Shown: piece by piece, positions 5,049-55,010 of the stretch
Numbering within the stretch: position 1 is the first letter of the stretch
Layout: each line of letters begins with the position of its first letter
DNA from: Adineta vaga
Lineage: Eukaryota; Animalia; Rotifera
Direction of reading: 5' to 3'
Length of the DNA stretch: 64,000 nt
Assembly: GCA_021613535.1 (NCBI GenBank)
Contig: CP075492.1
Location: 14,119,769 to 14,183,768 of the forward strand
The notes under the pieces: generated by a model
The model's database searches: none
Seen by the model: only the letters and a program-made list of their open reading frames with translations
What the model was told of the DNA's origin: nothing
Position numbers and translations under genes: made by a program

Positions 5049-5101
5049 ATCGCTTCGAGGGTGTGAACGAGGGTATAGTTTCTTCACATATATACGCTCA
5101 C
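5049..5101. repeat. short hairpin-forming element, copy 1 (gagggtgtg…cttc…ctcactctccccc)
   Basis: Alignable with the copies at 13836..13888, 38691..38740 and 54961..55010. They share GAGG(G/A)TGTGGGTG, GAATGAGGGT-like and CTTCTT blocks plus an inverted CACCCACACC-type arm. Confidence 0.35.
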
Positions 5102-5301
5102 TCTCCCCCGTGAAATATTTTGTATATTTAAAAGTATACATTTAGTAGGAGAGGAAAAAGAACATGTGCAAATGAATTCTAAAAACATTTCAACTTTTTG
5201 ATCGTTATGTTGTTCAAAAACCTTCATAATTTTCAGTTCATTAAATTATAGTAGAACTCGTATAAAAAATTTGTTTATTACAAGATTCGTGTTTCGTCAG
5301 A

Positions 5302-7103
5302 TTAAGACAAAGTAACAGAAACCATCCGACTTGCTACAGTTCCAGTTACTTTCAAACAAAATCGAATCGAATAACTTTGTCCGGTTGTTACGAAAAACGA
5401 CTGACTGATTTCATCAGCAACGTTTGCACACCAACTGTCTACACGGTAAGAACCAGTACGAGCTAAACCGCCCATAACTTGACTACCACTAGAGAATTGA
5501 CAAGCTCCATTTGGTATTGATCTTGTCCAACCAGGTGAGAAAGAGCCGTATTCAAAACCACCGTTGACTAATAATTCTGTAGTTCCATTAGTTACTGTTA
5601 CGTCATCTAAATACCAATGATCAATATTACTTCGAAATTGAAATACGAGGTTAACAGAGCCTGTAGTACTAGCTATCCATTCAGCATAACAACAAGTATA
5701 TGAAGTAAATGAAAATGTTGTTGAAGAAAATAAACTGGAAGATCCCACATTTATAGGAGTACCACATGGATTTGCAGTAGTAGTTGCTATTAAACAAGAA
5801 TGATGGAAAAATAAAGTAAAAGTTTTCAAAAAAAAATGACTAATTTACTCGCTATTTTACTAACTACAGAAAATAAACAATAGAAAGATTTTTAAGAAAA
5901 ACAATTCAATCATTTATCCGAATATTTACCAGAGTCTTTTTTTTCTACTGAATTTTGCTGTCTCTTTAATATTATCAGGTACTAAAATTGTTGACTTCAT
6001 TTTATCATAATGTAGATAATCTATGTTAGTCCTATATTTCTGGAATATGAATACGTAGAAATCATCATTATCACTAATTAAAAAGCTTCGACAACTAAGT
6101 TAAAATATGAACAGATGGGAAAGTGACATTTTCTCATGTAAATGTAAATAGATATCAACGACTTACATGTTGATGAAGTGCTGCTAGTCGATGATGATGT
6201 TGATGTGGAACTAGTAGTTGTTACGGATGCTATGAATTATAGAAATCTTCGGATGTAGATATATCAATTTGAAAAAGAAATATATACTTGTTGTTGTAGT
6301 AACAGTAGAAGTGGTCTCTGTTGTAGTAGTTGAAGTAGTTTCCGATGTGGTAGTAGATGTGCTCGTTGTTGTCGTGGTAGTTGCAGAGGTCGTGGTAGTC
6401 GTTGTTTCTGATGTAGTGCTTGTTGCTTTGTAATGATAAAAATAATAAATATAATTTTTTAGATGAAAATTTATAATTACTTGTGCTTGATGTAGTTGTC
6501 GTAACTGTTGTGATTGTCCTCTTGACAAAGAGACCTGCAAGTATACCAGCAAGACCAATGGCGAGTAATATAGCAATGATTATTGATGCAAGACAACAAT
6601 ATCGTGATCGAAGTCGACGGACTTTACGATTAAGATTAGGGTTCATATTTTCTTTCGTGCCTGTTTGGTTGAATCTGATGGTTTTAACTTTACTAAAACT
6701 TGATTTTGATCGCTTATGTTTGAGTCGTTTTGTTTTTCGTAATTGTTGTTCTTTAGACTGAGCACTACTATTGGAAAACGATTTTTGCGTGTTTGTCGAT
6801 GTTTTAGTTTCGCATATCGATCTGGATGGTATTGACAATGGAAGAGTCTGTAGAGGCAATATATAATGATTAATTGTAAACATTCATATTCAATAGTAAA
6901 ACAACTCCTACTTTGGATGAATCCATGAATTGATTAGAATTTCGTGGTAATATATTTGCATGAAAATCAAACTTCTTGTTCTGATATGATGATTGTAATC
7001 CAGAATTGATCGATGATGGTACAGATTGAGTTAGAAGAGGCGAAAATAACTTCACTCTATCTTGGCTCGATGGAAGTATTCGAGGCACTATACTTTCAAC
7101 CAT
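5302..7103 (-). CDS. multi-exon gene: single-pass TM protein with Thr/Ser-rich mucin-like stalk and C-terminal CBM4_9 (galactose-binding-like) domain
   Basis: Proposed exons on the minus strand: ~7103..6912 (ATG at 7103; donor AAA|GTAGGA), 6847..6481 (basic cytoplasmic tail KHKRSKSS, TM CCLASIIIAILLAIGLAGILAGLFV, donor CAA|GTAATT), 6425..6288 (TTSETTTTTTSATTTTTTSTSTTTSETT), 6229..6167 (all Ser/Thr codons, donor T|GTAAGT) and 5786..5302. All splice phases are consistent. Introns are 64, 55, 58 and ~380 bp. The terminal 'ORF' 5302..5829 has no ATG (the listed start is TTG) but carries the CBM_4_9 signature LLVNGGFEYGSFSPGW. Confidence 0.55.
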
Positions 7104-8176
7104 AGAAGTTTTTGCATTCAACTAAAAATATACGTTTAAATGCTTTTAAAATAACTTGATATATCTAAGAAAGATGCGTAGAAAAAACAAGCACTTTCTT
7201 TCTGCTCAGTGTTTACATTACAGATTATTCATAAGAACTTAAAACACTATCTACTTGAATTATACTAGGTATAGCAATCTTACTTGTCTAAGAACGCTGG
7301 CATGAATAGTGGACGTCGTTGTTGTGATTTAATTCGTTTCACACGTGTTACAGTAACATGACTCTTAAATAAAAAACAAGATGTTTTGAAAACATATACA
7401 ACAATTAATCCTACTTTGTCTTGATATGACCAGCGTTGAGATCTCGATTTCAAAGATTGCTCTGTTTTCATCATGTAGTTCGATTTTATTCTTCTAATCA
7501 AAATATTCTACTCACATATCATTCTGAAATCAAAGAAACTGAATATTTTTATCATTAAAAATCGACTAAGAATGGAATTCAATTTGACATAAATAGGTTT
7601 CTCCATGGAATATATAAGTCTTATTGTCATTAATGTAATTCATATTTGTTATTGTTTGGTATGTTCTCGAAATAAAGGTAAAGAACATTTCTTAATATCG
7701 AATTTGCGTTTCTTCTCTACAAATTATAGAAAAAGAATAATTGTATGGCAAGCCCTGTTTTTTGTTGGAAAAATAAAGTAATAAGAGAGGAAACATTTGC
7801 AAAAATTATTTTCGATATTGTAAGATTTCGTACATTGAATAATCATCGACAGCTAATAAAGAAAATCTTAAGTAGAAAGAAAAACAATGATTGTATAGTC
7901 TGCCGTATTTTTATTTTAAGTCAATAAAGAGTATTGATTATAGTTATATATTTATAGAGTTATATTATGTCTTAATTTTTTTTGCTATGAAATTAACCTC
8001 TCATTTTATTTGTGAGAGTCATTTGTAATCAAATTATTTAATGGGAAAGTCACACGTGTCATTGCATGTGATATACATATATATATCTGAAACTCTTTAT
8101 GTCAATGACTATTAGGATTATAATTATATTATTATGTTATGTGCAGTATAAAAATCAACGTTAAAAATTAGAAAGT

Positions 8177-10735
8177 TTAAAAACGCGTGTGAATTGTCTC
8201 TCCATCTTGTGTTTTGAAATAATCAGGTGGTGAAGAATTGATCTCGATGTTCATTTTCTCATTGAATCTTGCGCCATTCATTGACATTCGAACATGCGGA
8301 TAAGCTGCTTGAGTTTGTTGTATTTCAGCCATTGCAATACCAAGAGAATCCTGTGGAATCCATACAATTGGTTTCGGTTCTCGTAATGCTGGATTCATAT
8401 ATGCATTTTCCATTGTATTATCATAAAAATCCACCACAGCATCATTCATATCAGAAACACTACTAATATCATCAGTCGATCGGCAATGCGTCAATACTTT
8501 TATTGCTGTTTTTGTTACGGGAAATCGGCTCGCATGAGGATTTTCCAATCGTACATATTCTTCAGCATCAACTGGTAAATAATACGTCAGTGGATCGAAA
8601 CTAGAACGCATTGTCATGTACACAATAACAGTCAATACAATCAATATGCACATGAGAATACCTTGAGGAATAGCGGCTTGTCTACCGGATTCATTTTGTA
8701 CTAGAAAAAATAATGCTGCAAGCATGATTTCCATTAAATAAACGCCAGTAAATGATTGATAAATAGCTCGCGGAAAAGCAAGACCACCAGAATCATTGGG
8801 AAAGTCGTTCACATAGAACATTGTATAAGTATAGGCAATATAATATAAAGCAAATGCAATACCAGATATGATGAGCATAAGAGGAGCAACAATCGAATAA
8901 ACTAAAGTAATGACAATAAAATTTGTAAAAACGGGAAATATTGTTCCCCAATCGAGACTTGAAAGTGTAAAATATCGTCGCCATTTTTTTCGTGGTGTAT
9001 TATCGAATAATTTTCCAAGAAGATAAAATGAAATCAATGTTACAACTTGTAATAAAACACCACAAGCAATACTTAATCCTTGTAAGGCAATAAAACTAAA
9101 GAAGAAATTACTTGCCGTTGGAATATTTGCAGCAAGTATTGTTGCAGCACTCGGCGGATTTTGAAAAATATCAACAATAACACTGGAAACACTACTAGAT
9201 ATAGTAACAAATAAGAAAACATGCGTGACTTGAAAAACAAAATAGGATCCTTGTACATAACGATCAATTGCATCCGTAGTAGGTTTGCCAGATAATTTCG
9301 CCAATAATTTCAATATGATCGGTAGTATTGACATTAAAATAGCTAATAGAACAGTTGGTAGAAGACCAGTAACTAGACCAAGAAGTGATGTTGGTAATTT
9401 ATAAATAACTTGAAGAAATGTTACTTTATCTGTAAGATACGTAATATTAGAGAGTATACCGACAAATGTAACAGGAATAGCCCAGAAGACGATAAGAGCG
9501 GCTGTTGCTGCTAACATAATAAGTTTTCTTAGTTTTTGTTCATAATAGCTTAATTTTAAATTTGACCAAACGATATTCAATGGTTTAATATCAATAAATC
9601 GAGGTGACATCGCTAAAGGAATGGACGCTGCTACACTTTGAACAGCCATATGAGCTGCTATTTGTGTATGAAATTGAATAAATGCTGAATTAATCGGTTT
9701 ATAATTGTTCAAACGTGTTTTTTCTGTTTCAATTTCTGTATTTAATTGTGAGATGGTCGTTTTACAGTATGTCAGAGCATCGACTTTCTTACCACAGCAG
9801 AGAGATGAAAGTATAGGAATTATTCCAATTCGCATTGTTGGTCGTTTGCTTTGTGGAATATAATGATCTATAATCTCTTCTTCATTAATCGTAAGAGTTT
9901 GTTCAGAATTGATCGTGTTTTTCTTTTTCTTCTGTTTAGCATCGTTTTTCAACGCTGTTTTAAGTAATTTACATTCAATTGCTTCGAGTTTTTCGACTAA
10001 TTTCATACGTTGAGCTACTTTATCAGGAAGATTTTCAAGATTTCGATTGAGCCATATATATTTTACTCCACCGGGAAATTGATTAAAAATTCGAAAGAGT
10101 ATATCGGTATCCAAATATACTTTTGGTATTGCAGTAACAAGAATCGTCGTTGCACTAGCACGAGATTGATATATCGAACTTCGTAATAATGCTTGACGTT
10201 TTTCTACAAAAACTTTCATTTCAATATAAAGAAGAAAGAGATATGCACCAAGAAAAACATATGCAAGTACCAATGGAGCTATGTATCGTAAAGAATGACG
10301 TGATGGTATATTACCAAATGTTAGAATATCGAGTCCTGTTTTTCCATATGCTTTACCTTTTCCATCAATTGTATAAATTGGAAATAGAATGATTGCTATA
10401 AGAACGAATGAACTTAGGAAGAAGATAGCATGAATGTAGAGATAACGTGCGAAGAAATAAGCATCAAGACCTGAAGTACGAATAAGATCTTCTTTTGGCA
10501 TCTTTAATAGAGCGGGTAACCAACCATAAGGTGTACGAGGCAAAGATTCCACACGTCGTTTTTCATCTCCTAAATATGTTTTTGGTTCATAGATACGTTT
10601 AAATATTGTTCTAATAGCAACGAATAAAACGACTTCAATTGCACCAATTGTAGCAGAAGCAATGAGTGTTGTAAAAAATTGTGAGAGTGAATAACCCTGC
10701 ATGCTTTGAATAGCTTTGGTTGTATTACTTGCCAT
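8177..10735 (-). CDS. CSC1/OSCA/TMEM63-family (DUF221) stress-gated calcium-permeable cation channel, ~852 aa, single exon
   Basis: The real ATG is at 10735-10733 (MASNTTKAIQ…); the ORF-track start at 10789 is TTG. The N-terminus matches the family (…FVAIRTIFKRIYEPKTY…) and the long multi-TM C-terminal half is typical of RSN1_7TM/PHM7. Confidence 0.8.
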   Translation of the reverse strand: MASNTTKAIQSMQGYSLSQFFTTLIASATIGAIEVVLFVAIRTIFKRIYEPKTYLGDEKRRVESLPRTPYGWLPALLKMPKEDLIRTSGLDAYFFARYLYIHAIFFLSSFVLIAIILFPIYTIDGKGKAYGKTGLDILTFGNIPSRHSLRYIAPLVLAYVFLGAYLFLLYIEMKVFVEKRQALLRSSIYQSRASATTILVTAIPKVYLDTDILFRIFNQFPGGVKYIWLNRNLENLPDKVAQRMKLVEKLEAIECKLLKTALKNDAKQKKKKNTINSEQTLTINEEEIIDHYIPQSKRPTMRIGIIPILSSLCCGKKVDALTYCKTTISQLNTEIETEKTRLNNYKPINSAFIQFHTQIAAHMAVQSVAASIPLAMSPRFIDIKPLNIVWSNLKLSYYEQKLRKLIMLAATAALIVFWAIPVTFVGILSNITYLTDKVTFLQVIYKLPTSLLGLVTGLLPTVLLAILMSILPIILKLLAKLSGKPTTDAIDRYVQGSYFVFQVTHVFLFVTISSSVSSVIVDIFQNPPSAATILAANIPTASNFFFSFIALQGLSIACGVLLQVVTLISFYLLGKLFDNTPRKKWRRYFTLSSLDWGTIFPVFTNFIVITLVYSIVAPLMLIISGIAFALYYIAYTYTMFYVNDFPNDSGGLAFPRAIYQSFTGVYLMEIMLAALFFLVQNESGRQAAIPQGILMCILIVLTVIVYMTMRSSFDPLTYYLPVDAEEYVRLENPHASRFPVTKTAIKVLTHCRSTDDISSVSDMNDAVVDFYDNTMENAYMNPALREPKPIVWIPQDSLGIAMAEIQQTQAAYPHVRMSMNGARFNEKMNIEINSSPPDYFKTQDGETIHTRF

Positions 10736-11510
10736 TTTCAGATAAATATTCGACAGAGTGATGTGAAGAAATAATACTAAAAACGACAAAACTATGAGTA
10801 TATGAATTATATAATATACGAAGTATATCAGTAGGTGTTTGCATGAAAATATGAAAGAGAATCGTTTTGAAGACTATATTCTTTGATACAGAATGGTAAA
10901 AAAAATAATAAACGTTGCCACGATATGTTGAAGGAATGGTAATTTTTTTATGTTGATCTATGAAGCGACAGTATTCTACAACGTGAGAAGAGAATCGAAA
11001 CAGCCAGAAAAAAGATGGTAATGGAGGAAAAAATGATACACATGCCTTCAAGTGACTGACTCATTTATTCAATGAGTAATTGTCAAACATATACGAATGA
11101 ATGTGAAAAGATTAATCGTATGAAATCTTTTACAAAAAAGAAAATTCAAAGAGAATACAAAAATGTTACGATTTCATCGTTATATGATTTGATCATATCA
11201 TAAACTTTATTTTGTATTCTGTTTTATTGACATTAAACACTCGCATATATACATATATATATATATATAGCAATTAACATTGATAATGAAATATCTCTAT
11301 AAATATGTTTTGAAAAATGAATAAGTATTCATTAGTTTGATTGTACGATTGTTTTATGGGATTACGTTGAATAACTATGAAAAGTTTTTTTTCCACTGAG
11401 TGACTATTTTAATGAAAGGAATCAACAACAACATCATGCAGTTTTACTTATTTTGAATACAATCATTCATTTGATTATTCTACTTCGAAGAAATAACTCA
11501 CGACTAAACT
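10736..11510. promoter_or_regulatory. divergent intergenic/promoter region between the CSC1-like (-) and GPCR (+) genes; contains a (TA)n-rich tract at ~11245..11269
   Basis: It lies between two divergently oriented start codons, is AT-rich and contains TA repeats. No experimental support. Confidence 0.3.
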
Positions 11511-12476
11511 ATGCCAGTGACCATTTTACCATCGATACAACGAGAAATCATTCGATATGGTGTTAGCATATATCTTATATTCGGTCTTGTGGGTAATCTC
11601 TGTAATTGTGTAATGTTTACACGAAATTCATATCGCCGCAGTCCTAGTTCAATTTATCTTCTTTCACTTTCAATATTTTCTATAATTTATCTTATTTGGA
11701 CATTTGCTCCACTTTTCTATACACTTAATTATATAGATCCTCAAACTCAATCAATAATCTATTGTAAAGTACGACAATATGGTAGTCATACTCTTAGTCT
11801 TCATATTCGTTATGCAGTTGTACTTGCATGTTTTGACCGATTTCTTGTTACACGAACAAATGTTCGTATCCGTTCATTGAGCACCATTAAAACAGCAAGA
11901 ATTCTTACTTGTATCATGTGTTTTGTATGTTTATTAATTGCTTTACATATGCCTGTTGAAATGACTATCAATACTAGTAGAGTCTGTGGAATGTTCGGCA
12001 TGTACAAGTTATCGTATGCAATTTATCAAATTATAATTTTTACTTTAACACCACCTATCTTAATGATTCTATTCAGTATTTTTACGATTCATGATCTTCA
12101 GCAACGACATAATATAAATCAAAGTCATGCAAGAAAAAGAGATCGTCATCTTGCATATATGGTTATTGCGGAAGTAGCAATAAATATCATTTCATCAGTT
12201 CCATATGCAGCTAATCTTCTCTATGGTGCATTGACATATTATGTAACAAATAAAAGTACAGAAAGAGCAGAGATTGAAGCATTTTTAACTTTTATTACTC
12301 AATTTTTTATCTATTTCTTGGGCGTTGTTCCATTTTATCTATTCATATTAGTATCAAAACCATTTCGAGATGAATTCATGGATTTTCTTATCAATAATTG
12401 GTACAAATATATTTTACGACAAACACGAGTGGTTCCAACACATGAATTAAACGTTCTAGCTACAAACAATCATTGA
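11511..12476 (+). CDS. class-A-like orphan GPCR (7TM), 321 aa
   Basis: ATG at 11511. TM1 GLVGNLCNCVMFTR (GN…R), a DRY-like ACFDRFLVT at the end of TM3 and seven hydrophobic segments. TM7 …PFYLFILVSKPFRDEF. Confidence 0.7.
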   Translation: MPVTILPSIQREIIRYGVSIYLIFGLVGNLCNCVMFTRNSYRRSPSSIYLLSLSIFSIIYLIWTFAPLFYTLNYIDPQTQSIIYCKVRQYGSHTLSLHIRYAVVLACFDRFLVTRTNVRIRSLSTIKTARILTCIMCFVCLLIALHMPVEMTINTSRVCGMFGMYKLSYAIYQIIIFTLTPPILMILFSIFTIHDLQQRHNINQSHARKRDRHLAYMVIAEVAINIISSVPYAANLLYGALTYYVTNKSTERAEIEAFLTFITQFFIYFLGVVPFYLFILVSKPFRDEFMDFLINNWYKYILRQTRVVPTHELNVLATNNH

Positions 12477-12488
12477 ACAATATAATAT

Positions 12489-13520
12489 TTAATGATGTAA
12501 AGTTGTCGTATGTTTAGCATGCATTGCAGCCATAGGTATGGTATGCATATTAGTTCGACTATCATGATCAGCCGGCATTTGTCGATAAAACCATCTCATT
12601 CGTTTCAAAAGACGAAATAATTTTCGACGAAATGTTGGACTAGATAGTGTATGTAAATAAAATGCAGCACTAAAATTTAAATATGGTAATGTAAATGACA
12701 TATTGATCATGAATACACCTATTAATGTAATTTGAGTGCTTTGTGGCGCAGGATAGATCAAACTATAGATTAGATAGACGGCATATAATATATTACATAA
12801 AAGATCAGTGATGACCTGAGCCAATAACATTGTTATATATTGACCAATGATTTGACGTTCGTTATGTATAACATCATTCGTTGGTAAAATTCGTCTTTGC
12901 ATTGTTTTTAAATGACAAAAAGTAATCAGACCACATATAATCATACTTAATGGAATAGATATGCCTTGAATCAATGCAGATATTGTAGTATAAATAGCAT
13001 ACGTTGAATTTGGTGGTGATAAACATTGACCATAGATTATTGTATGATATATTAAAGCGGGTGACGAATACACGAAGGAAAAAATCCATATAAAAACAAT
13101 CAAATAATACGCTACTTTTGGTCGACTTTCCATACGCATCCATGCACTTCTCGAACTAGCACACATTCGATCAACGCAAGCAAATAAAATTGATAATCGA
13201 TAAATTAAGAAAGAAGTACTAGTCAAATAAGTACGTAAACGACAGAACCATAATGAAGTTAGAGCAGGATCAATATTGTAAAGACCACGAACAAGACGTA
13301 GTACAAGACCAAAATTTAATATAAATATATCAATAATTGATGCAGATAAAAAGTAAAGTAAACAAGAATTTGAACGTGATGTTGGTCGAGCAAATATTAA
13401 CAAATTCAAACAATTACCAATATTTCCCAATATAAAACAAATTGGTAATATAATATAATTAAAAGACCAATTCACATCATTGAATATAGTTGTTAAACTA
13501 GAAACGAAAGTGCCTGACAT
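12489..13520 (-). CDS. class-A-like orphan GPCR (7TM), paralog of 11511..12476, 343 aa
   Basis: ATG at 13520-13518. LGNIGNCLNLLIFAR and ACVDRMCASS motifs. It is tail-to-tail with the previous gene, with only 12 bp between the stop codons. Confidence 0.7.
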   Translation of the reverse strand: MSGTFVSSLTTIFNDVNWSFNYIILPICFILGNIGNCLNLLIFARPTSRSNSCLLYFLSASIIDIFILNFGLVLRLVRGLYNIDPALTSLWFCRLRTYLTSTSFLIYRLSILFACVDRMCASSRSAWMRMESRPKVAYYLIVFIWIFSFVYSSPALIYHTIIYGQCLSPPNSTYAIYTTISALIQGISIPLSMIICGLITFCHLKTMQRRILPTNDVIHNERQIIGQYITMLLAQVITDLLCNILYAVYLIYSLIYPAPQSTQITLIGVFMINMSFTLPYLNFSAAFYLHTLSSPTFRRKLFRLLKRMRWFYRQMPADHDSRTNMHTIPMAAMHAKHTTTLHH

Positions 13521-13835
13521 TTCTACTGATTATATCTTAGCAGCTTTATCTTAGTTTATAGTTCTTTTCTGTGAATTGTCAGAAGAAAATGAAGAAAGAA
13601 ATTCATTTATAAATGACGCATTTTGTGCTGTCAAAATCAGATTTACTATAAATATTACGAAGAGCGTTATCTTGTCATATTTCAGATCGTGATAAGTTCC
13701 AACTTCAGATAAACAACGTTTCTGACAGATCTAATTAGTTTTACAAGAGACACGATATATTTCCTTCGTTATTGAAGTTAGCGTAAACAAACATTTTCTC
13801 TAAATCTACAGTTTTGTTCATATCCTGAGGATGTG

Positions 13836-13888
13836 GGTGAATGAGGGTCTTCTTATGATTTATACTCACACCCACACCTTCAGGTCCA
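13836..13888. repeat. short hairpin element, copy 2 (gaggatgtgggtgaatgagggtcttcttatgatttatactcacacccacaccttc)
   Basis: Inverted arms GATGTGGGTG / CACCCACACC with a ~30-nt loop. Related to the copies at 5049, 38691 and 54961. Confidence 0.4.
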
Positions 13889-14367
13889 ACTGATGTATAC
13901 TGTGTTCGAAATAATGAGATTGTTGTGTAGACGAAAGTCTTTTAATAAAACCAGCATCTTATCGAAAGGGAAAAAACACATTTTTTTAACCTGTAATTAC
14001 ACAAGAAAGTATGTCTAATCGTGACAGAAAGCAAAAAAACCATACCCACGTCATTTTATTTTTTTTCTCACGAACATCAGCAAGGACAACGCATACATTG
14101 CTTCTGTTGTTGTGTTTGTTGTTAACAGGTAAGAAAAAGAATTCTTATTTCGGAAGAAAATAAACGCAAAGTTTTTGCATCTGAGAGACTCTCCTATAAA
14201 TCCAATCCCTAGGGAACCGTGTAGTTAACTCATCAATGATTTATCTGCGAACTTGAAGGTTAGAATATGTGGTTTTTTTTCGAAAAAAGATATATAATTT
14301 AATTTTACTCTTCTACACACGAATGATTCATTTCAGAACATAATATATACTTTACTAGTCTTCTACC

Positions 14368-15225
14368 ATGAGCGGCTCCGGAGAGCGTTTTACAGACGTT
14401 GATGTAACCAATAAACGCTTACCAGCGTGTTTTGGTTATATCGCATGGAAGGTATTACCTATTGAACAAGCTATGGCAGACTTAAATAGTTGTCTGCGCG
14501 AAATCAACAGATTTGTCAAGCTTGCCAAGAGATACTGTACATTTCCAAATGACCATCAGTTGACTAAAGATGAAGCCACGGCCATATATATTTATACTAT
14601 GGAAATGTCGGAAGATGAATGCATCTACCGTATATTAAATCAAACGTTACGTCTCGAAGATCGAACTAAAGTTCGGCCATGGTTCCCGTATTTAAAATTA
14701 TTTGACTCTGCAGTAGCTAAATTACCAACGTTCAAAGGTGTCGTCTGGCGTGGCGTTAATAAAGATGTCAGCCAGTCGTTCAAAAAAGGCCAAAAACTAA
14801 CTTGGTGGAGTATTAGCTCATGCTCAACATCAGTAAAGGTTATTTCATCGTTTTTGGGTGAAGTTCCTGAAAGCACTCTTTTTAACATTCAATGTTCGAC
14901 TGGAAAATGTATTGCAGCATACACATGTTACCCAAGTGAAAATGAAATTATCTTAATGCCAGGTACAACATTTGAAGTTGTAGACGATCCATTACATCAT
15001 CATGGTGGTTTACATATAGTTCATTTAAAAGAAATCAACGAGGAAGATGATAACGAAGACGATGATAAACAAAGAGAATCCATAGAATTAGCAACTCCCC
15101 AACCTATGGCTGCTGCTTCTGTGTCACAAAAATTCGAAAAATTGATCATAGGTAAAAATAACATGCAGGGTACTTCCTCTAAATTTACTGATCGACTCCG
15201 CAGTCTTTTTCTTACAATTTCTCAA
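14368..15225 (+). CDS. R-S-ExE mono-ADP-ribosyltransferase (ART/toxin-like, PF01129-type), first coding exon
   Basis: ATG at 14368. AIYIYTMEMSEDECIYRILNQTLR (aromatic-R block), VWRGV (the Arg in the hvYRG-like block), WWSISSCSTS (STS) and YPSENEIILMPGTTFEV (Q/E-x-E) are present. A consensus donor CAA|GTAAGT lies at 15226 and an AG acceptor 60 bp later at 15285, so the 3' end is probably spliced. A Pro-rich candidate downstream exon lies at ~15581..15696. Confidence 0.7.
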
Positions 15226-18200
15226 GTAAGTGCTCGCATTGACCTGCATCCTGTCATGGCTCTTCTCTGCTGGATAATATTCTAGGGGAAAGTACACAGT
15301 CCGATAATCTTAGAAAACTGAGAAGAATTCAATAGTATCTATTGGAACTCACATTACTCTCTTTAGTTCATTTTCTGGAGAGAAGTAAAAACTGACTTTA
15401 TAGTTCGCAAATACAATAGAGAATGGTTAGAGTACATCTAGTGAAGATATATTTGAATCAGTATTATGCTTTTATACCGCAATTATTCTGTTACTCGGAT
15501 TACACTCGTGAAGAAAAGATAATGTTTTATCTATGAGTATCAGTATGAACATGGAGTTATAAGAAATGGTCTCTTTCTCTATTTAGACCCTTATCACGCA
15601 AGTCCTTCAAAACCCAGCGATACATTTCATGGTACGAAGAACACAATGACATCAACTGAGCCATTGCCTAAACCTGTATCTATGCCAAAACCAGGTATGT
15701 TAATTTGAAGAAATTTACAATCTTTTCCTCACATCTAACCTCTCCATCGGTTTCAACATGGAAGAATTCTATTCGATCCACATAGAAGTCTCTATCTCTG
15801 ACGAACTATATCATAGTATCAAAATTCCTCACTTTCTATTCCAACGTATCTTTGATAGTTCTGCTCCTATTTTATTTAATACTTGTGCTTTGAAAAATTA
15901 TAAATTTTCTACGCAACATATGTGTGGCAGTCGGTTAGGGAATTTAGTTGAGATTGGAATATAGAAAAATACTATCTAAATCTATATTTTTATTTGTAGA
16001 GAGGAAAAATAGAATTGATAATTGTATATTAAAGAAAACAGTTATAATTTATTTAACTATGTTATGAAACGTTAAATAATTGTTTTATAAAGAGGATATT
16101 GATTTTTGTAAAAGTAGACAGATTTTTTTCATGAGCGGGACATGCGGGACATTGAAATTTTATATTGAAAGATAGAGATTTTCGTAGAAAAAATAGTTTT
16201 CTTTTCTAGGTGAGAAATGCGGCACATAGAGTTTTCTTTCGTTTTGTATTAAGAGAAAGATTTCTGCTACCTATTTTTCCTGTTACGGTTTATTTGACAC
16301 TGATTTAAATAAATCTTTCTCTTTCCCTTTTTTAAAAATTAGTTTTCTGCAATTTCTTATTTAGAATATAGGTGAGGCTGCTTCCGAATATTTCAATGTA
16401 TAAAAAAATATATTCGTATGCATAGAATAAGTATTTGCGAAGCATAAATTATATGGATGAAAAATGAATTATCTCTCAGATTTTTTTTAGAAAATAGAGG
16501 TTTTGTTAAATATTTTTATTGACTAACTAGAAATAGAATGTAATGAGTGGTACACTACTTTAGATATTGATAAAAATTTAGACAAGTTTGAAAACATTAC
16601 GAGCAGAGAGCTGATGAAAATGGCAACATAAATTAAAACGAGAAATAAAGCAGTTCAGTTTGAGGAATAGGAATATCGTTTTTTAGTGCCCCTTGAAATC
16701 AAAATAAAGTTGGAATAGTTTAGACGAAATGATTTCGAGTAGGAGGTAAAAAAGGCAGGGAGTACAATTGGTTAATGAAGTAAATATTTCTACAAAATTT
16801 GACAAGTTAAACATGTAACAAAGAGTTTAATAACTTAATTTAAAATGATTATCATAGGACTATCGCTAAATCTTCATTTTGTAGGAACGAACATCTACTA
16901 AGAGAATATAAAATAGAGAAATGATTGTGTCACTTAGATTTCTTACATAATAATATTTTGAAACACACTCTTTTATTCTTTGATAAAAAGAAAACGGTGT
17001 GAATGACAAAATGTTTCTTTATGAAAATCCGTTTATAATATTCCATTCGATTCAGATAGATTTATTGATGAAGAAATCTATTTAATTTTCGTTTCTCTTG
17101 TTTCTGTCTATTTTTTTCGCGCATTCCAATCTCAACTGAATTCTCATGTCAACTGTGACATTTTTATTTATAGATTTAGCAGTATCGTTCTGAGCTGTAG
17201 TAGATCTAAACACACAGGTAGTACTAGTTATTGATGGTAATACAGATAGAGACACAGAAAGTAAACATACAAGAGAAGAGATAGTTGACATGAAATACTC
17301 GCAGTCTTCACTTTAGCTAAATACTATAGTCATTAATCGAATGTTTTCCAGCATACTATTGTTCATCTCCTTCATAACTCTGTAACAGCTATGAATTTTT
17401 GTTTTAGAAGATAAAGAATTTGCTGAGCCTGGTAGCTGTGACAAACTCTATCACAATTATTCATTTGTTCTATGTCCAATAACTAACGAAGCATAGTAAG
17501 ACAACGGATTTAGACAAAATAATGTAAACGAATACAACTTTTGTCATAGGCAATCGTATATTCGATGCTTTATTGCAAATATATTCTAGCAGAACTTCCA
17601 TGTCTAGTGCGAGAAATATATGAACGAAATGCTGAAGGGCGTCGTATCTATTCATTTTGTCTGTCAACTATGAACTGTCCATGAAGTGTTATATTTGACT
17701 GAAAAGAACAAATAATAATCGAATGCTATGATCCTTGTGCAAAATGTCACAAGTGTCGTTGTTCTTATTCTATTATCGTATAATCAGAAATTAACAAATG
17801 AACTTCAGACTTTTATGAGATTAAGAAAAATAATGGAATAGAACTTTGATTTAAACGATTCAAAGGACATACTTTTTCTTTATGTTGATCGATTGAGTAA
17901 TATCGCTTTCAAACAACTGAAGTAGATGAATATGATCATTGGAATTTTCTAAATCATTCATGTGCTGCGTGAATATCAGTGGTCTATCCGTCTGAAATAT
18001 GAGCATTATTGTAGACAAAATAGGCTAATACAATCTACTGGTGATAGTAATTATTCATTTAATCAGTGAAACGTAAAGCTATGATTATGAACGAGTCATT
18101 CATTTCATATTAGTGAAATAGATGAATAGAAATGTCTGCCCATGTGGAAAATGATTGTACATTTAGTATGTAATGTTTTCATCTGAAGCAATAAAGAACA

Positions 18201-19597
18201 GCTTGTTTCTAGAGGAGTCGTATTAATAAACGAGACTATTGGGTACTGACAATTTGTTTTTCATGTGATTATTTATTGTCTGCGTAGATTGGATACTTCG
18301 CATCGTTGTAGGTGAAATAGTTGAATAATATGAATGTAATAAGAATAATTTAGTTTTCATGTGATCATTTCACAGGTGAACAACATTCAATATCAAATAC
18401 AAAGTGATTAGTATAGGAGATCATGGCCATTACGACAATTATAACCAACCATTTATAGTGCCATCGTCGAACTGTGAGTATGCTTCGATCTTTCTTTGAT
18501 GATATATCTTATTACTGAATAAGAACATTGGAGTCCGGAAGACAAGAAAATAATCATTCATTTTACATGGAATAACCTGTCTCAAAGAATAATTAACGTC
18601 TTCAATTTTAGGATCTTCGAAATAAGTGAATTCATCTCGCTGTGGTAAATAGTGATGGATGTATCATGAGATGTATGATTCACTTTGTCATTCGCATACA
18701 TTAGTAGGATCTTTATGAGATAGATGAACAGAATACCGATCATAGTCATCTATGAGTGATACATCTTCAATCCATATTGTAACTTGAAAAGTATTTCTGG
18801 TCCATGAGAATGATAAGCGAACGTCACGATGGTGGAAATAATATATTTGCCATATTACCTTTCATATTCTTGTCAACTCGTTGTACTTCTTCGAATTATA
18901 AAGTAAATAAATGAATGAATCCTTCGTTCGTATAATACCATTTTGATACGAACTATATTTATTTAAATTAGGGCTGATTTTAAAACTGAGTCGCAAATAT
19001 ACATGAATAAAGTACTTACAATCCTACTATTCATTTATATCGTACATTTCTTTTATTCAAACTGATTGAATTAAACCTTGATAGGAAATATTATTCAAGA
19101 ATGGAATTTGCTTCGCTTTTATTCGTTAACAATGTCATATTAACTCTATTGCATTCATTTCTATCAACCGCTTCTAAATAATCTTGATAATTGAACCGGC
19201 ATATTTCACAAAGCGTTGTCACTATTCATCTCACCTACGATCATTGATGACCTAGAACCAGGGCACCTATATTCATTACAAAGGAATGAATTTTGCGAAC
19301 AGATCTGTCTCAACAATTCATTTAATACGTGATAACAAATTGGCTGCATGAATTTTTCTATCTTTCCGGAGTCTCATATACGAACAGAGTAATGATCTCA
19401 TATATTCATTAACTTTGTGATATGTTCTCAAACATCAAACTTGAAAGCTCTCTTCAAGAGCTCATCCAACTAATAGAGAAATCTTTGGTACAAACTATTT
19501 ACCTACCATACAATCTTCAAATAAGTGATCCACACGTAGATATTACTTCACTGTCTTAACAAATACATGAATATGATATTGCGACTTGTTACTCGTA

Positions 19598-30923: not shown

Positions 30924-30933
30924 AATAGTCATT

Positions 30934-38668: not shown

Positions 38669-38690
38669 CTAAATACATCATTATTTGAGG

Positions 38691-38740: not shown

Positions 38741-39219
38741 TTGACATGAAATAGAGATTTATTTGCGAAGATCACTTTACAACCATCAGGACTATATGAT
38801 ATGGTTCAACGTTTGGCAATGATCATACTTGGTATACATAGATAACAAAAACTATTGTAACTTGACAAGTGCGTACAGTTATCTCAATACACACATTCTT
38901 ATGAACTTCTTCATTTGAATTCGTAATATCTAGCTCAAACATTGTAAGAAAATTGTGTTTTGTCTAGAAAGCAATAAACATACTTCGCCAAGGTTTGATA
39001 AGAAGGGAATATAGAACGTAAAAAACAAATATAATTTCGCAACGTGTTAGCCGAAGGTGACGTTTTATATGGTTATCGATATGAAAAATCCAAATCATCA
39101 TTCTGTATGCCTTACGCAATACGTTTACGATTCATAAGACTATAAAACAGTAGGATATCAATGATATACTATCGAAAATGAGCTCAGACATTATTACTAA
39201 CGATAGAACGAAAACAGTC

Positions 39220-40255: not shown

Positions 40256-40868
40256 TATTTGTCAAATTTCATACAGATGTAAACAGATGAATAACAACTA
40301 CCAATGTCGACTTTTATCAAGCGATTTTTTGATGAAAATATTGCAAGAAATTGATTGTCTTATACTTTACAGATGTTAGATTATGGAGTTAGGTTTTTTT
40401 TCTGTAATTATAAATTTGTGAAAACTAAACGCAAAGGATGTATTCGTAACATAAATAAAACGAAGCGTACAAGGAAAAACGATATCGAAGTTTAGAAGGA
40501 CATCTATTTATCAGTGAGAAAAATGTGTTTGTGTATATCCTTCGTTATACAGTAATCTGATCGAAGGAAATAAATCAAAGAAAACTGTTTTGAATGTAGA
40601 GCTATAAAATATCAAGTTTTGAACTTTTATTAACAAAATACATCCGACGTATGCGTCTCAAAGAAAACGTATCATTGATTTTTGTCGTAAGAAAAGAAAG
40701 AAAACATGCCTGTCTATAGAACACTATGATGATTTTGCATATACTATAACCAAGGGTATCAATGGTATATTTAGAAAAACTTTCTATAAGATAGTTATAT
40801 TTTATTCAGACATACTGCATGAAACTCATCTTAACATTCATCACAGTGTCTCTTTCGTTTTTTTTTAT

Positions 40869-43800
40869 TATGTTTGTGAAGATGGTTGTGAATTAACATT
40901 TGATCGAGCCAATGCTTCTGTTAATCGTTTTAATGTGATTGTAATCTATGAAGAAAAGAAAATCAGAATACGTTAGACAAATATGATATAGTTTCAAAAC
41001 ATACTTCATTCAATTGTCTTTGCATATCTTCATATGTATTCCCGTTGATTGAACTAAAAAGATATTCAATGAATCATACAGTAAACTTATATTCAATACA
41101 TGTCTCTCTACTAACGATTCCAGTAATTTTCTTTGTTGATTTAAATTCTTTTCCTTCTCGAAATTTACAACCGATCTAGCATAACCATACGTTGCAGCAT
41201 TTTCAAATTTACTCCATCGTTTATGAAGTACTTGACGATTTAATGGAATTATCTCTAAAAAATATTATCTATGCTTCATCTTGAATCTCTTTTAATTCTA
41301 TTATTCTTACTAAAAATCGGTGTTGTAACAGAATTATGTTCAGTTCTGATACTATCAAGATTTGAAGAGCAACATTTCTTCCACAGAGCAAGACACACAA
41401 TCCATATATGTGGTATAAGTATCAATGGTGGATAAGCTAACCATGGACGCTCGAAATATTCACGTACAAATGAATATCGTTGAAAACGCCAGTAGAATTC
41501 TGTATTTTCTTGAACTTCATGAATAGTACGGCTATAAAAGAAAAGAAATTTGATTGCCTAAATCGTCTCGAAAAATACAAGTATGTTGTTACGTAAAAAC
41601 AGCAATTAATAAATTCAACAATAAGATATTAATGAATAACATATGAAATGCTAAAAGAACATGTGTCGCAGTTGCTTCAGCAATAAATGTACTATTTTCG
41701 TTATGTATTATATCTATAGACGAAATATTTAGTCTATATGCATAAGAAAAAAGGCAAGCCTATCAAATGTTCTTACTATCTAGTGTGATTGTGTCGTTAT
41801 ATTGTCCATGAATGAACCAATATGGTGAATAAAATATATTCTCAAATATACCTTGACCAGTAAATGGTACTTGTTTGTACATAAAAAGTGCACGTGAAAC
41901 AACACCATATGCAGCAATAGCAATAAATATCATATACACAAATGCACCTAAATCACGCAACTAAAATAATCAAAGATAAACTATCTATACAATAATCTTA
42001 ATTATTTACCATATTTCTCAGCATAAAAAGTTTTGGTCCTAAAAATTTGAGAGCAATCACAAATTTTAATGAACGAAGATACCACAATTCTAAATCGAAT
42101 GCCATGATAATTCGTGCTGCTGATAAGACACTTGGTGTATTACCAAATGCATAACGTAACAAGATTCCAAGATAGAAAAGAAGAAATGGTAGAGCATAGA
42201 AAGGATTAGCTAACTTAGTAAGAATTAAATGAGTAGTTGTATTCCATTTCTCGAGCATTCTTGTATGCAAATCATGAACAATCTAGAAGTTCAAGATGAA
42301 TAAAAAGAGAAAATTCATTATTTCACATTACATACTTGTCGTATTTCTTCGAGAAACATGGTAGTAACAATAATGATGATTGCATATTCAGTCCAATGTA
42401 GTTTACCATTTGTATATGCAAGTGAATCGAAATGATAAAGCATCATATAACTGAATATCAACAAGAAGAAAATATATGAAATCTAAATTGAAATACAAAA
42501 AATGATGTAGAATCGTTTGATCGAATTGTTTACTTACGACATGATAGCACATTTTAACGAGTGGAGTTTCGTGAAAACTAACGAATTTCTTCCAAAAACT
42601 AGGTTGATCTTCATCAATATCATAATTGATACCATTTTCAGATAATCTAAATAAAAATTAATTGATGAAATACTTCGAACATGAATGTAGTATTCCAAAA
42701 TATTAACATACTTTACATTTCTCGTATGATCATCAAATGCTTCCTAAAATGCAAAGAAATGAGAGAAAATAGTTGTGAAGTAATTCTATACATACATTAG
42801 AATGATAATCTTCTTTTGATCGATATTCAAGAACTTTAGGTGCAACAAGTCCAAATGTTGCTATACTACATGTCAACCAAATTTTCGAGGAAAGAGATTT
42901 GTTTGAAAGAGCCAATTTATTATACCAAATTTGATTGAGTACATGATCAAAACATGCTGTTTCTAAGAATTTAGCATTCTTTCCAGATATTGCAATCTAT
43001 ATCAAGAATTGTCGTAATTATATGACCAAAGTAATTTGATAAAGAATACTCACCTGCATACATGTGACATTTCCAAATGAAGGAATTACTCTCATTAGTA
43101 ATTGACAAGTGAGTGCTTCATTAATTTCATAGCAGAAATTAACACATTGTGCTGAATAATTTTCGAATTCAATCACTTGTCGATTGAGTCTATCTCTAAC
43201 ATCAATAATTGGTGTTTCATTTGCATAACTCTTGAAGATTTTTGCAGCAATCAATGAAGCAGAAATACGTTCTTTCATATGAATTAAAATAGTCTTTGCC
43301 ATTAATGAAAGATCCATGAATACAGACCAAAGAAATAGATCTCTTAACATATCTTGTTGCGAATAATTGTAGTTACTGTCATTTGCTGTCGTATTGTTCG
43401 GATTAATACCTATTGTAGTAATGTTTTGAACAGTTTTCATACCTTCCAATACATCCTGATGAACTTGTAGAATAATATTTTCATTCTCAGACGCAACTTG
43501 ATTCTTGAAATATTTCACGGAAGACCAATTTGCTGAGGGTGTCCTTGGTGCAGTCGGAGGAAGAGAATGATATACAGAATCAACGTATGAACCTAACCAT
43601 TTCCTTAACTTTTTATTCAGTATTCGAATATTTGTCAAGTCTTCATTTCTTTGACCATAAAATAACTTTACTGATTCTTTGTTATGATACTACAATGAAA
43701 AGATTTTCAAGAAAGTGTATTCGAATAGAATAAGTGACAAAGTTTTATTAACTTCGTGTGCGTTATCTTTGATATGCTTGTATAAGCTAAGAACAAACGT

Positions 43801-45728
43801 TTGACATGCTGTTGCGGTGTCTACGTTGGGTGTTTCAGATTCAAGTTGTTCATTATTGGAAGAAGTTTGACCGGTAAGACTTGATAAATCTCTTGGATCA
43901 CAATCACAACGTAGGAAATAGTCAACGAAAGACGGACGATTTTGTTCTAATGCTAGTTTCAATAATTTTCCACGAAGATACTTATCCTAAATTGTAAAGA
44001 ACATAAAAAATGTAGTTCAAAAAATAATATTTCAATTACCTTTGTTTGACCGTCTTTTTCTCTTTTCGTATTATTTACTTCAAGTAATTGTTTTGCACCA
44101 TCTAAAAAATTCCATCTGATAGATAAATCTAGTAATCGTGCACGTTTCTCATCATCGGGATTGTCTTTGTAAGCTAGAAAGAATCAAACAATTAGTTTTT
44201 ATACAAAATACAAGGATCACTTGCAATGACTTACCTGAGAAAATAGCTTGAAATATAGTTTCTGAAACATTTTTCTCTGCATCAAGTTGATATACGTGCA
44301 ATAAATATCGATTGCTACTTTTCATTACGTCAATGATCTGTTTGATACGAGTGGATCGATCTTTGTCTCCTATTAGCGCAGGAAAATAGGTATCTAGCTG
44401 CTCTTCTATTTCAGATTCTGTCGGTTCTCTAGAGAAAAGATCTGTGACGAAATAGAAACTATTCAGTACACGATAAAAGCATACCGTAATTTAGTTCGAT
44501 CAGTATTTGTTGTCAACTGTATGAGACTGGCTAATACATCAGATATTCGACCACTTTTCTAAACAAAGATTTCATACAAAGTTCGGCATGATTGTCGGAT
44601 CAACATCAATACTATCGATACAAACTTGCAATAAAACAACAGGTCTTTTTACTCCAAGATCAGCTTGTATTACTTCTAAAGTATTAGCACCTCCTTCTAC
44701 TATGATTGTTACCCCATAGCCTAAATATGATACATTTAAATTAGAATATATCGCACCATGTAATAGGAAAAATATGTCTGAAAAGTGATACTCGATACTT
44801 ACAACTTCCATCGCGTGTTGCTTGTTCGACAAATTGTGCTCTTGGCATATCACTCAGATGACCACACAATTGACCGTTGTCTAATATTAAGTGATGGGTA
44901 TGATTTAATTCTAGTGAATCTGCTTCTTCTTGCCAGTTTGGATCAGTTTGTCTAATACGTTTCAATTCTTCGGGATAATCCTTAATATAACATTATAAGA
45001 GAAATAGATTAGTGCAATCTGTAATAGCTCAGAATAGCTTACAGGTGAGTTCTGCTTCAACATCATTCGTGTTTGTTCCGTTAGACTACCCCATTGTGTT
45101 AGACCAATACATGTTATATTTTTAGGATGTTGTTTTAAAACTCGATATTGTGAAATGCCTTCTCCAATTAGATTTGCCACACCATTATTCACACCAGCTG
45201 TTAGAATCCATGCATCTATTTAAAATGAAAATTAAATTCATATTCTAGAATCTGTCAAAATCATGATCATCTACCAGCTCTCGTTGCTAAATCAATAATA
45301 CCAGTAACAAAATCTTTTTCTATTCGTTCACTCAATGTAAAATATCTTGCACCACCATAGGCACTTATTAATAGATTGGGCTTTTGATTGTTACAGTCGT
45401 TAAGAATTAAATTGTATAATGCTACCGATTTTGTACGATTCTCGCAACGAACAAATTTCGGACCATTGGATGATAATTGACCATAAATATTAATATCAAC
45501 TGCAGCTGTGTCTTTTCCTTCATTCCATTTAGTATTGATATCATCGTTTTCGTTAAGAGTTCCCTGATGAAGTGTGACATAGCTATGCCTTGATTTTAAA
45601 CGACCACATTGACACAAATCTTTTTCTTGATGTGCTACATAGATTTTACACGTTCGTGACTTCAATTGTTTATTCTGTTTAAGATCGACTATTCGATCGG
45701 TCCATCTAAGAGACGATGCCGTACTCAT
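40869..45728 (-). CDS. TRPM-family cation channel, multi-exon
   Basis: ATG at 45728. N-terminal TRPM homology blocks: KIYVAHQEKDLCQCGRLKSRH, NLLISAYGGARYF, VNNGVANLIGEGI, LNHTHHLILDNG, GVTIIVEGGANTLEV and RPVVLLQVCIDS. Transmembrane region: AARIIMAFDLELWYLRSLKF, MIFIAIAAYGVVSRALF. A TRP box YWRFQRY lies at ~41440. The terminal exon ends …ARSNVNSQPSSQT* at ~40869. Confidence 0.8.
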
Positions 45729-52963: not shown

Positions 52964-54431
52964 CAGCAGGCAAGTCTTATTATGTAACAAAATCTGGTAA
53001 GGATAGTAATGCGGGAACGACTGAAGCAACTGCTTGGTTTACCATACAAAAGGCAGCAAATTCAGCAACACCTGGTTCGACTGTTTATATTGGTGCTGGC
53101 ATTTATTATGAAGCAGTCACAGTAAACGTGCAAGGCAATGCAATAGACGGTCCGATTACTTTCACTAATTTAACACCAAATAAAATACCTGTTATTTCTG
53201 GCAAACAAACGACTATTGCATCTCCTGATGGAACTTTAAATGTAATTTATATTCAAGATAAGAGCTACTTACGTTTTATCAATCTTGAATTAACAGAATT
53301 AAAAGCAGTTGAATGTAGTGGAGTAAGAATTGTGGGCAGTGGAACCAATATTGGTGAGTTTTTTTTTAAAATTTTGATTTCTCTGATAGAAATCGATATT
53401 CTATTCTACCCTTGTAGAACTACGAAATTTACACATTTATAATATCCGTGGTGGAGATGAAAGTGGTGGTGCAATGGGAATTACTGTCTATAATAATAAT
53501 CAAAAAACAAGTCGTCGTCAACTGATCATTGACAATTGTACACTTCATGATTGTGATCCAGCATGGAGTGAAGCATTGACATTGAATGGCAATATTGAAC
53601 AATTTCAAGTGACGAATAATCGAGTATACAATATGAACAATATTGGAATTGATTTTATTGGTAAGTGTAGTTTCATGCATCATCAGAGATATTTTGATTC
53701 CCTTTTCGAATAGCTGGCGAAAATTGGTTAAGCGGTTTAGGAACTCGATCAGGTCTATGTGCTAATAACACTGTCTGGAATATTCATTCAGTTTATGACT
53801 CTAGTGCAGCTGGCATCTACGTTGACGGCGCTTCCAATATAACTTTAGAAGGAAATGAAGTTCATCATTCAGATATGGGAATAGAAGTAGGTGCCGAAAA
53901 TAAAGGACAAGTAGCAACAAAAATGCTTGTTCGAAGTAATTATCTTCATCATAATGATAAATTTGGATTAGCCTTTGGAGGATACGATTCTCAGTAAGTC
54001 ATCCAAACATTCTTTTGCAAAATAAAACGAATATATTGATGATTTATAGACGAGGTCGGGTTACAAATAGTTTATTCATATCTAATCGACTTGAACAAAA
54101 CGATATGATGCATACAGGTGGTGGAGAAATATCTATTTCATTTGCTTCTGACAATACAGTTCTTCGCAATATCGTGAAGCCAAATGATCAAAATATCATT
54201 CTTCTTGCAAATCAAGATGGTGGTTTAAATAATCAATTCGATTATCAAATATATTATCCAAATGGACAAGGTGCAACACAAGAAAAACTTATTTTCTATT
54301 GGGGAAACACAGAGTGTGATGGTTTACGTGCATTTCAACAAAATAGCAAACAAGAAATGCATGCTCAAACCAATGCAGTGAAACGTGCCTTCGGAATAAA
54401 AGGTTTTTTTCCACGAAAGTTTTATTTCTAA
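52964..54431 (+). CDS. secreted right-handed beta-helix (DUF1565 / pectate-lyase-fold) protein, four mapped exons; 5' signal exon not resolved
   Basis: Exons ~52964..53353, 53418..53660, 53714..53993 and 54050..54431. Introns are 64, 53 and 56 bp with donors GTGAGT, GTAAGT and GTAAGT. The phases 1/1/2 are all consistent. The N-terminal domain SYYVTKSGKDSNAGTTEATAWFTIQKAANSATPGSTVYIGAGIYYEAVTV is typical of bacterial-type beta-helix proteins. A candidate ATG at 52746 is followed by the donor CAA|GTAAGT, but its phase does not fit. Confidence 0.7.
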
Positions 54432-54960
54432 TGAAACAACATACAAATACATATACTATAATTTAAATGCGATATAGTTAGATCCAAATAAAAATAAAGC
54501 TCCGTTTGAATCAATATACGCCTTGTAATTTTAACGAAAAATATAATGATATGGTCGCGAAGTATCATTTGCTGACAAATTTACTTCACATATCTTTCAA
54601 TGATTCAGAATACGAAATCACGACTGTTTTCTTTTCTTAAATGCGTAAAGTGCATTAATTGCGTTGAAAGGTTAGTATAACACAATGTCTGAAATGCTTT
54701 TTAACTGTGTAATCGAAAACGAAGTAAAATCAGTGAAGAAAAATTAAAATTAACTAAATATTTTTTTTTGGATATCTGCCTTGGCAACGTTGATAGTATA
54801 TAACGAAGAAGAAAACTGTGCTGGACACAATTCGTATTTACTGACTTGATCATGTTTATTCAAGTAAAGATTATATGTCTCATGAATGCACTTTTATGGA
54901 CTCAGACATGTAAGCATGAAAAATTCTATGATAATATATAGGTTTTTGCTGAATTTCTGT

Positions 54961-55010
54961 TATGTAGTGGGTGTGGGTGTATAACTTCTTCTCTTACCCA
55001 CACCCTCAAA
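54961..55010. repeat. hairpin (GTGGGTGTGGGTG … CACCCACACCC) at the junction between the beta-helix gene and its truncated copy; element copy 3
   Basis: agtgggtgtgggtgtataacttcttctcttacccacaccctc. The arms are (TGTGGG)2-like and the loop contains CTTCTT, as in the other copies. Confidence 0.45.

Follow-up and report, generated by a model that had tools for sequence, protein, structure and literature searches.

The DNA analysed here is a 64,000-nucleotide stretch (the window) of Adineta vaga contig CP075492.1 (positions 14,119,769 to 14,183,768, forward strand, assembly GCA_021613535.1), in which short elements made of telomere-like repeats, some able to fold into hairpins, lie scattered among genes. 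The gene content of the window (G-protein-coupled receptors (GPCRs), ART, pentapeptide repeats, questin oxidase, P450) is consistent with A. vaga, and a 321-aa open reading frame (ORF) at 36667-37632 is 100% identical to A. vaga I4U23_015387, its next matches being other bdelloid rotifers. An initial annotation had described four copies of the element, with arms resembling the telomeric hexamer of bdelloids, and had considered two origins: a miniature inverted-repeat transposable element (MITE), or traces that telomere-repeat healing or capture had left at old breakpoints. The nature of the arms is borne out: bdelloid telomeres are made of (TGTGGG)n, with which all scaffolds of the chromosome-level A. 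vaga assembly terminate and of which interstitial copies exist (PMC8494291, PMC7943196). TGTGGG occurs 11 times in the whole window, mostly within three loci. The arm core GGGTGTGGGTG (at most one mismatch) is found five times against 0.06 expected, a count reached by none of 100 shuffles.

The four copies (c1 to c4; Table 1) are of unequal standing. Two of them, c2 and c4, are hairpins and c3 is a single arm, while c1 is only a weak, decayed look-alike; three hairpins had been counted before, and folding supports two. The DNA fold of c2 has an energy of -13.8 kcal/mol (z -2.4), and that of c4, with a perfect 10-bp stem and a 17-nt loop, -10.6 kcal/mol (z -3.4). The inverted partner of c3 is absent and its fold is unremarkable (z +0.7), as is that of c1 (z -0.8), whose pairwise alignment scores, at about the 95th percentile of random windows, are at chance level. 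A family hidden Markov model (HMM) made from members outside the window detects c2 and c4, in both cases better, by 6-10 bits, on the strand that matches the family centre: 19.7 bits on minus (E 1.6e-4) versus 13.5 bits on plus (E 0.015) for c2, and 18.4 bits on minus (E 4.1e-4) versus 8.5 bits on plus (E 0.56) for c4. It does not detect c1 at E ≤ 10. Read on the minus strand, the centre of c2 is ...ATAAGAAGAC-CC, which is the family motif, that of c4 is GGGT-AAGAGAAGAAG, and c3 reads CCACACCCACACCCTCAAA; c3 has a 15-nt exact match, TTTGAGGGTGTGGGT, to the minus strand of c4. Pairwise similarity of the window copies does not extend beyond the T(T)TGAGGGTGTGGGTG-type arms and a short motif in the loop, and a comparison of the flanks of all four revealed no additional homology. 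The sequence blocks that had been seen to recur among the copies can now be explained, CTTCTT being the family centre on the other strand and GAATGAGGGT a decayed GGGTGA repeat; the coordinates first given for the copies were about 8-10 nt off, the true ones being lower.

Table 1. Telomere-repeat elements, genes beside them and blocks of synteny with A. ricciae
Sequence	Feature	Positions	Strand	Remarks
Window	c1, possible decayed member	5054-5109	.	TTCGA, GGGTGTGAACGAGGGT, ATAGTTTCTTCAC..., CTCACTCTCCCCC
Window	c2, hairpin	13822-13886	.	fold and family HMM
Window	c2, ATCCTGA	13822-13828
Window	c2, G-rich arm	13829-13848		GGATGTGGGTGAATGAGGGT
Window	c2, centre	13849-13864		CTTCTTATGATTTATA
Window	c2, C-rich arm	13865-13878		CTCACACCCACACC
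Window	c2, TTCAGG	13879-13884
Window	c3, solo G-rich arm	38684-38703	+	TTTGA + GGGTGTGGGTGTGG(C)
Window	c4, hairpin	54967-55009	.	fold and family HMM
Window	c4, G-rich arm	54967-54979		GTGGGTGTGGGTG
Window	c4, centre	54980-54995		TATAACTTCTTCTCTT
Window	c4, C-rich arm	54996-55005		ACCCACACCC
Window	c4, TCAA	55006-55009
Window	Matches to GGGTGTGGGTG (≤1 mismatch)	13829, 38689, 54969	+
Window	Matches to GGGTGTGGGTG (≤1 mismatch)	13869, 54995	-
Window	CAP-domain fragment	38356-38668	-	two exons, ~38583-38668 and 38356-38524; Pfam CAP positions 65-117 of 117
Window	Parent beta-helix gene, copy A	53128-54431	+	duplicated part ~53604-54372
Window	Beta-helix pseudogene, copy B, 5'-truncated	55006-55670	+	~80% identical to parent; left end capped by c4 C-rich arm
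Window	RSN1_7TM/CSC1-like channel gene	8177-10789	-	anchors orthologous loci across Adineta
Window	Syntenic with A. ricciae	1-4661		no element
Window	A. vaga-specific (A. ricciae ~200 nt)	4662-8164		c1 near left edge, 396 nt inside
Window	Syntenic with A. ricciae	8165-13523		no element
Window	A. vaga-specific	13524-28336		c2 300 nt past last syntenic base 13523; ART gene 14368-15285; 93-bp satellite
Window	Syntenic with A. ricciae	28337-37957		no element
Window	Non-syntenic	37958-39223		c3 ~520-730 nt from either edge; CAP fragment
Window	Syntenic with A. ricciae	39224-44176		no element
Rotaria sordida L123	Member	9370-9490
Rotaria sordida L123	Tandem pair	15600-15790
Rotaria sordida L123	Solo G-rich arm	897-975		followed by AGAGAAGAC
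A. steineri L134	Members	448-537, 8126-8190, 8715-8776
A. steineri L138	Members	17148-17210, 18213-18275
A. steineri L136	Minimal perfect palindrome, 31 nt	7410-7445, 13646-13681		both haplotig copies; ATCTTGAGGGTGTGA-G/C-TCACACCCTCAAGAT

The window copies belong to a telomere-repeat hairpin family that is real and bdelloid-wide, with members in A. vaga, R. sordida, A. steineri and rotifer-like metagenome contigs. A scan of metagenome contigs for GGGTGTGGGT-N8-38-ACCCACACCC returned at least 120 stretches, which were sorted by composition. Among the matches listed, 38 contigs have less than 45% GC, many of them from three related samples, and most, not all, resemble the window elements in layout. 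An ORF on one of the metagenome contigs, L043, has its best named match in R. sordida (77% identity) and bdelloids as its only named matches; contigs L014, L057 and L064 likewise match bdelloid DNA. The motif GGGT-AAAGAGAAGAC-CC is present in the rotifer-like contigs L113, L096, L110, L052, L022, L041 and L080, and the 13-mer centre has arms on both sides in seven contigs. In R. sordida the two elements of the tandem pair are spaced by TTGATGAGC, the second beginning with ATCTTGA. Matches above 50% GC (L008, L021, L024, L029, L033, L072 and others) were set aside as unrelated bacterial palindromes of the repetitive extragenic palindrome type, tgggtcaGGGTGTGGGTCAA(A)GTTGACCCACACCCtgaccca. Scans for the centre motif found none in GTDB genomes and a single chance match, in coding sequence, in viral contigs. 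Seven assemblies of one locus from Rotaria sp. Silwood1 contain zero elements, and the R. sordida sequences L123 and L131 are 99.9% identical and so offer no contrast between presence and absence.

All members can be read on one plan: unique DNA, (A)TCTTGA, a G-rich arm, the centre GT-AAAGAGAAGAC-CC (alignment consensus GGGTGTGGGTGnGGGTAAAGAGAAGACCCnCACCCACACCC), a C-rich arm, TCAAGAT and again unique DNA. The G-rich arm consists of irregular GGGTGT, GGGTGA and GGGTG units and measures from 8 to about 200 nt. Of 122 arm candidates that were scored, about 70 of them bdelloid-like, 7 have ATCTTGA directly before their first GGG (chance about 0.004-0.007) and 16 have TTGA there; a further case of ATCTTGA occurs in A. 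steineri L138. The outer ends are often truncated, at variable points. The orientation of the arms is strict: in 209 kb of bdelloid DNA unselected for the motif, ten adjacent arm pairs run from G-rich to C-rich and one from C-rich to G-rich, and this lone pair is the gap separating two tandem hairpins. The same 209 kb, a small and non-random sample, give a density of about one element per 20 kb. Within a hairpin the arms are of unequal length (180 versus 156 nt in L113, 15 versus 54 nt in L041) and follow a different order of repeat variants, and an arm is no more similar to its partner than to arms of other hairpins. What the arms of one hairpin have in common is the outermost 7 nt and the type of repeat. 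An origin by fold-back, in which one arm is copied from the other, is ruled out, as the arms are not complementary copies.

Some of the arms adjoin incomplete genes. One case is c4, for which the initial annotation's placement at the breakpoint of a tandem duplication proved correct: homology to the beta-helix gene begins sharply at 55006-55009, right after the C-rich arm and TCAA, and the DNA to the left of c4 is unrelated. Copy B retains the intron and contains an in-frame TGA, which makes it a DNA-level, 5'-truncated pseudogene of the parent gene 1.4 kb upstream. At the corresponding break point the parent carries CTTGA, a 5-nt match to the terminal motif of the family. The arm c3, which had been placed inside a CAP gene, lies instead at the 5' edge, directly upstream, of a CAP fragment (Table 1), whose missing N-terminal half is absent from the 420 nt up to the divergent gene starting at 39178. 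In the metagenome contig L043, a 3'-truncated ART-TPR gene ends at a G-rich arm, with about 292 residues present of the roughly 440 aligned; its R. sordida orthologue is intact and runs through the point of the arm, and the other flank is missing from the contig.

A comparison with other Adineta places the copies in relation to larger rearrangements. The A. ricciae reference consists of two sequences, L132 and L001, that belong to a single 190-kb contig. Against it, c1, c2 and c3 occupy the three A. vaga-specific intervals of the window, each 300-730 nt from an edge. The elements are absent from the orthologous A. ricciae intervals, the nucleotide alignment of intergenic DNA between the two species being noise. 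In the A. ricciae counterpart of 37958-39223 (L001 11283-14827), an unrelated 822-aa gene of unknown function takes the place of the CAP fragment. In A. steineri the gene upstream of RSN1 is a different one, and hairpins B and C are found between the two, where gene order differs. A partial, 5'-truncated RSN1 duplicate without arms in A. steineri L136 was at first a candidate duplication; it is a haplotig join and no real duplication, and so is no counter-example.

How could such elements arise? Of the two origins proposed in the initial annotation, healing or capture footprints fit best, given that the arms adjoin truncated genes and that c1-c3 lie near the edges of A. vaga-specific blocks, but the elements are not random, independent scars. 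The explanation we favour, while holding it to be about evenly balanced between right and wrong, is that the hairpins are junction scars: broken DNA ends would have been extended by a telomerase-type reverse transcriptase and then joined. Several features speak for it. By the rule that the G-rich arm precedes the C-rich arm, the flanks on both sides carry the repeat as chromosome ends do, facing each other. Random filler is ruled out by the conservation of termini and centre, which indicates a common template. The independence of the arms, together with the ragged outer ends, fits two separate reverse transcriptions better than cut-and-paste transposition or self-copying, and differences in arm length and repeat order are what two separate extensions would be expected to produce.

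In the proposed sequence of events, the 3' ends of two DNA ends would be extended by a reverse transcriptase of telomerase type, either telomerase or an endonuclease-deficient enzyme like those of Athena/Terminon elements. Each end would gain (A)TCTTGA and then irregular GGGTGT/GGGTGA repeats because both would be copied from a common RNA template, one whose C-rich template part has fixed flanks, CUUCUCUUU on the 5' side and UCAAGAU on the 3' side, so that the copied RNA would read 5'-GUCUUCUCUUU-(ACCCUC/ACACCC)n-UCAAGAU-3'. On one of the ends, copying would pass beyond the repeat template into the 5' flank and add AAAGAGAAGAC. The extended ends would presumably then anneal, be filled in and be ligated, giving [DNA 1]-ATCTTGA-(G-rich arm)-AAAGAGAAGAC-(C-rich arm)-TCAAGAT-[DNA 2], with the G-rich arm always first. 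The ability to form a hairpin would be a by-product, and the elements would mark joins of unrelated or truncated segments. If this putative template exists, a single-copy, non-palindromic locus would contain CACCCUCAAGAU or CUUCUCUUUACCCUC.

Three precedents support the scar model. Deletion breakpoints in A. vaga carry telomeric repeats and Athena fragments, which have been read as scar-leaving neotelomeres (PMC13564844); the tails of Athena/Terminon RNAs are (ACACCC)n or (TCACCC)n (PMC6431247); and in mammals interstitial telomeric repeats are inserted at breaks along with nucleotides adjacent to the template of the telomerase RNA (Nergadze et al. 2007, PMC2246262). Like the mouse TERC-ITS and other break-repair interstitial repeats (PMC2246262), the bdelloid elements are short internal runs of the organism's own telomere repeat at break sites, and they may resemble them further in junction microhomology (here in c4 only, with 1 nt in L043) and in the co-copying of template-flanking nucleotides, which the fixed flanks suggest; unlike them, the bdelloid arrays face head to head and have a conserved centre and outer termini. 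With the A. vaga neotelomeres and Athena elements (PMC13564844), and with the repeats capping 5'-truncated Athena/Terminon elements (PMC6431247, PMC3846280), the hairpins have in common the animal group, the repeat and its TCACCC/GGGTGA variant. Gene fragments captured beside repeats are a further likeness, as is, probably, the priming of a reverse transcriptase on exposed 3' ends. Athena/Terminon arrays have one orientation, a retroelement body and a hammerhead ribozyme, whereas the hairpins are inverted and have neither body nor ribozyme, and no reverse-transcriptase ORF is adjacent to them in the window. Relics of head-to-head telomere fusion, such as human 2q13, also have, on one and the same strand, a G-rich array ahead of a C-rich one. 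The bdelloid elements differ from such relics of whole-chromosome fusion in being tens of bases long and many per genome, with a conserved spacer and termini. The elements thus belong to a known kind, the interstitial telomeric repeats left by break repair, and what is new is the head-to-head form with its conserved centre. Literature searches found no account of bdelloid palindromes in which telomere repeats meet head to head around a conserved centre, an earlier mention being possible.

Several observations weigh against a break-repair origin. No empty site was found for any copy, and the flanks may have formed a single insertion target instead of two separate ends. The differences between A. 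vaga and A. ricciae may have arisen by insertion in one of the lineages or by deletion in the other, the edges of the blocks are placed only by the end of coding homology, and each block has an element at just one edge. Junctions are informative in two cases in all, c4 and L043, and in the latter the match to the break site is 1 nt, which amounts to no microhomology. A search of about 300 kb of bdelloid DNA did not turn up the proposed template RNA. Rfam searches, at gathering and at relaxed thresholds, found no hammerhead ribozyme or other family adjoining the elements. Finally, the 31-nt palindrome of A. steineri L136 has a complete ATCTTGA on both sides, which suits a discrete mobile unit at least as well as a pair of independent extensions.

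Such a unit is the most serious competitor, one we regard as possible and somewhat doubtful: a small non-autonomous palindromic mobile element, whether of foldback or MITE-like DNA type or derived from a hairpin RNA by an Athena-type reverse transcriptase, with termini ATCTTGA...TCAAGAT, arms that change by slippage and a short conserved centre, which would insert at breaks or intergenically. Multiple copies with defined ends and a homologous interior, conserved across species in termini and centre, are what such an element would leave, and the L136 palindrome, the tandem hairpin pair of R. sordida and the density in the sampled loci are all in keeping with it. So is the position of the copies, which in annotated assemblies are without exception intergenic, often 30-550 nt from a gene start or end. 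The initial annotation's MITE-like alternative was therefore right about a family with conserved centre and termini, but the rest of that comparison fails: no target-site duplication was seen in the flanks of L134A, L019, L110, L096, L136, c2 and c4, which were inspected by eye and not systematically, and neither arm is a copy of the other. The variable truncation of the termini and the lack of a known coding partner also count against a mobile element, as does the way in which c4 and c3 lie flush with the truncation points of genes whose missing part is not found across the element. Elements bounded by telomere-like inverted repeats are familiar from the ciliate transposons Tel-1 and TBE1, where these point outward (C-rich left, G-rich right), and in a broader sense from MITE and foldback elements; the bdelloid hairpins have the opposite orientation to the ciliate ones and show neither target-site duplications nor identical inverted repeats.

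Three other explanations can be set beside it. The elements could be functional cis-elements, such as paired CACCC-box (KLF/Sp-type) sites, G-quadruplex or i-motif structures, insulators or intergenic terminators. The arms do include CCACACCC, the copies lie between genes at the short distances just given, and both haplotig copies of L136 contain the element; but an arm length of 8-200 nt, the decay of arms in c1 and c3, the orthologous A. ricciae intervals without an element, copies on pseudogene fragments and the lack of an evident positional rule relative to genes make a function of this kind improbable. It is harder still to see the elements as short spliceosomal introns or mirtron-like hairpins, with GT coming from the G-rich arm and a pyrimidine tract and AG from the C-rich one: c2 is readable as GTGGGT...CTCAC...CAG on either strand, and its length of about 50 nt is the size assumed to be typical of bdelloid introns, yet no copy lies inside a called gene in the annotated assemblies, coding continuity across c2 and c4 is lacking and there is no Rfam match. 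Chance likeness of GT-rich low-complexity DNA would account for c1, which by itself stays at chance level. For c2, c3 and c4 it is refuted by the number of core matches, the strict orientation of the arms and the centre and termini that recur in other species, and as a general explanation it is next to inconceivable.

Returning to junction scars, a more far-reaching version can be put forward, which we consider speculative and rather unlikely to hold in full. ATCTTGA and AAAGAGAAGAC would be the reverse-transcribed flanks of the template in the bdelloid telomerase RNA, or of a dedicated small template RNA, and the hairpins would be the signature of a routine, telomerase-assisted form of end joining that stitches together broken, duplicated and possibly foreign DNA after desiccation damage. 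Bdelloids, whose genomes hold an unusually high number of foreign genes, withstand massive chromosome breakage. If correct, the signature of telomere-capped end joins would provide a genome-wide map of datable events, would predict the sequence flanking the template of the bdelloid telomerase RNA and could be searched for in existing long-read data from irradiated or desiccated lines. If the elements are a mobile palindrome instead, they would constitute an unrecorded repeat family that inflates the counts of "telomeric repeats" used as a subtelomeric proxy in published analyses.

Some smaller observations concern the surroundings of the elements. The best non-rotifer matches of the RSN1/CSC1-like gene are fungal (36-40% identity), which suggests a horizontal origin. 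The window lacks a 157-aa, secreted-looking gene that A. ricciae carries beside the GPCR pair. At 1252-1300, on a synteny-block edge, GTGTGGATGTGAGATGGGAAAG...ACCCAC may be one more decayed element, with an HMM E value of only 7. The A. vaga-specific block that begins beside c2 contains a 93-bp tandem repeat (19598-25048; 58.6 copies, 94% matches) whose plus strand is almost free of C (GC skew about 0.92) and which has no long ORF. A 37-nt piece of its unit recurs in inverted orientation 650 nt downstream (25701-25737), and the unit includes GTGGGAAAGAGAG, a sequence resembling the centre of the hairpins.

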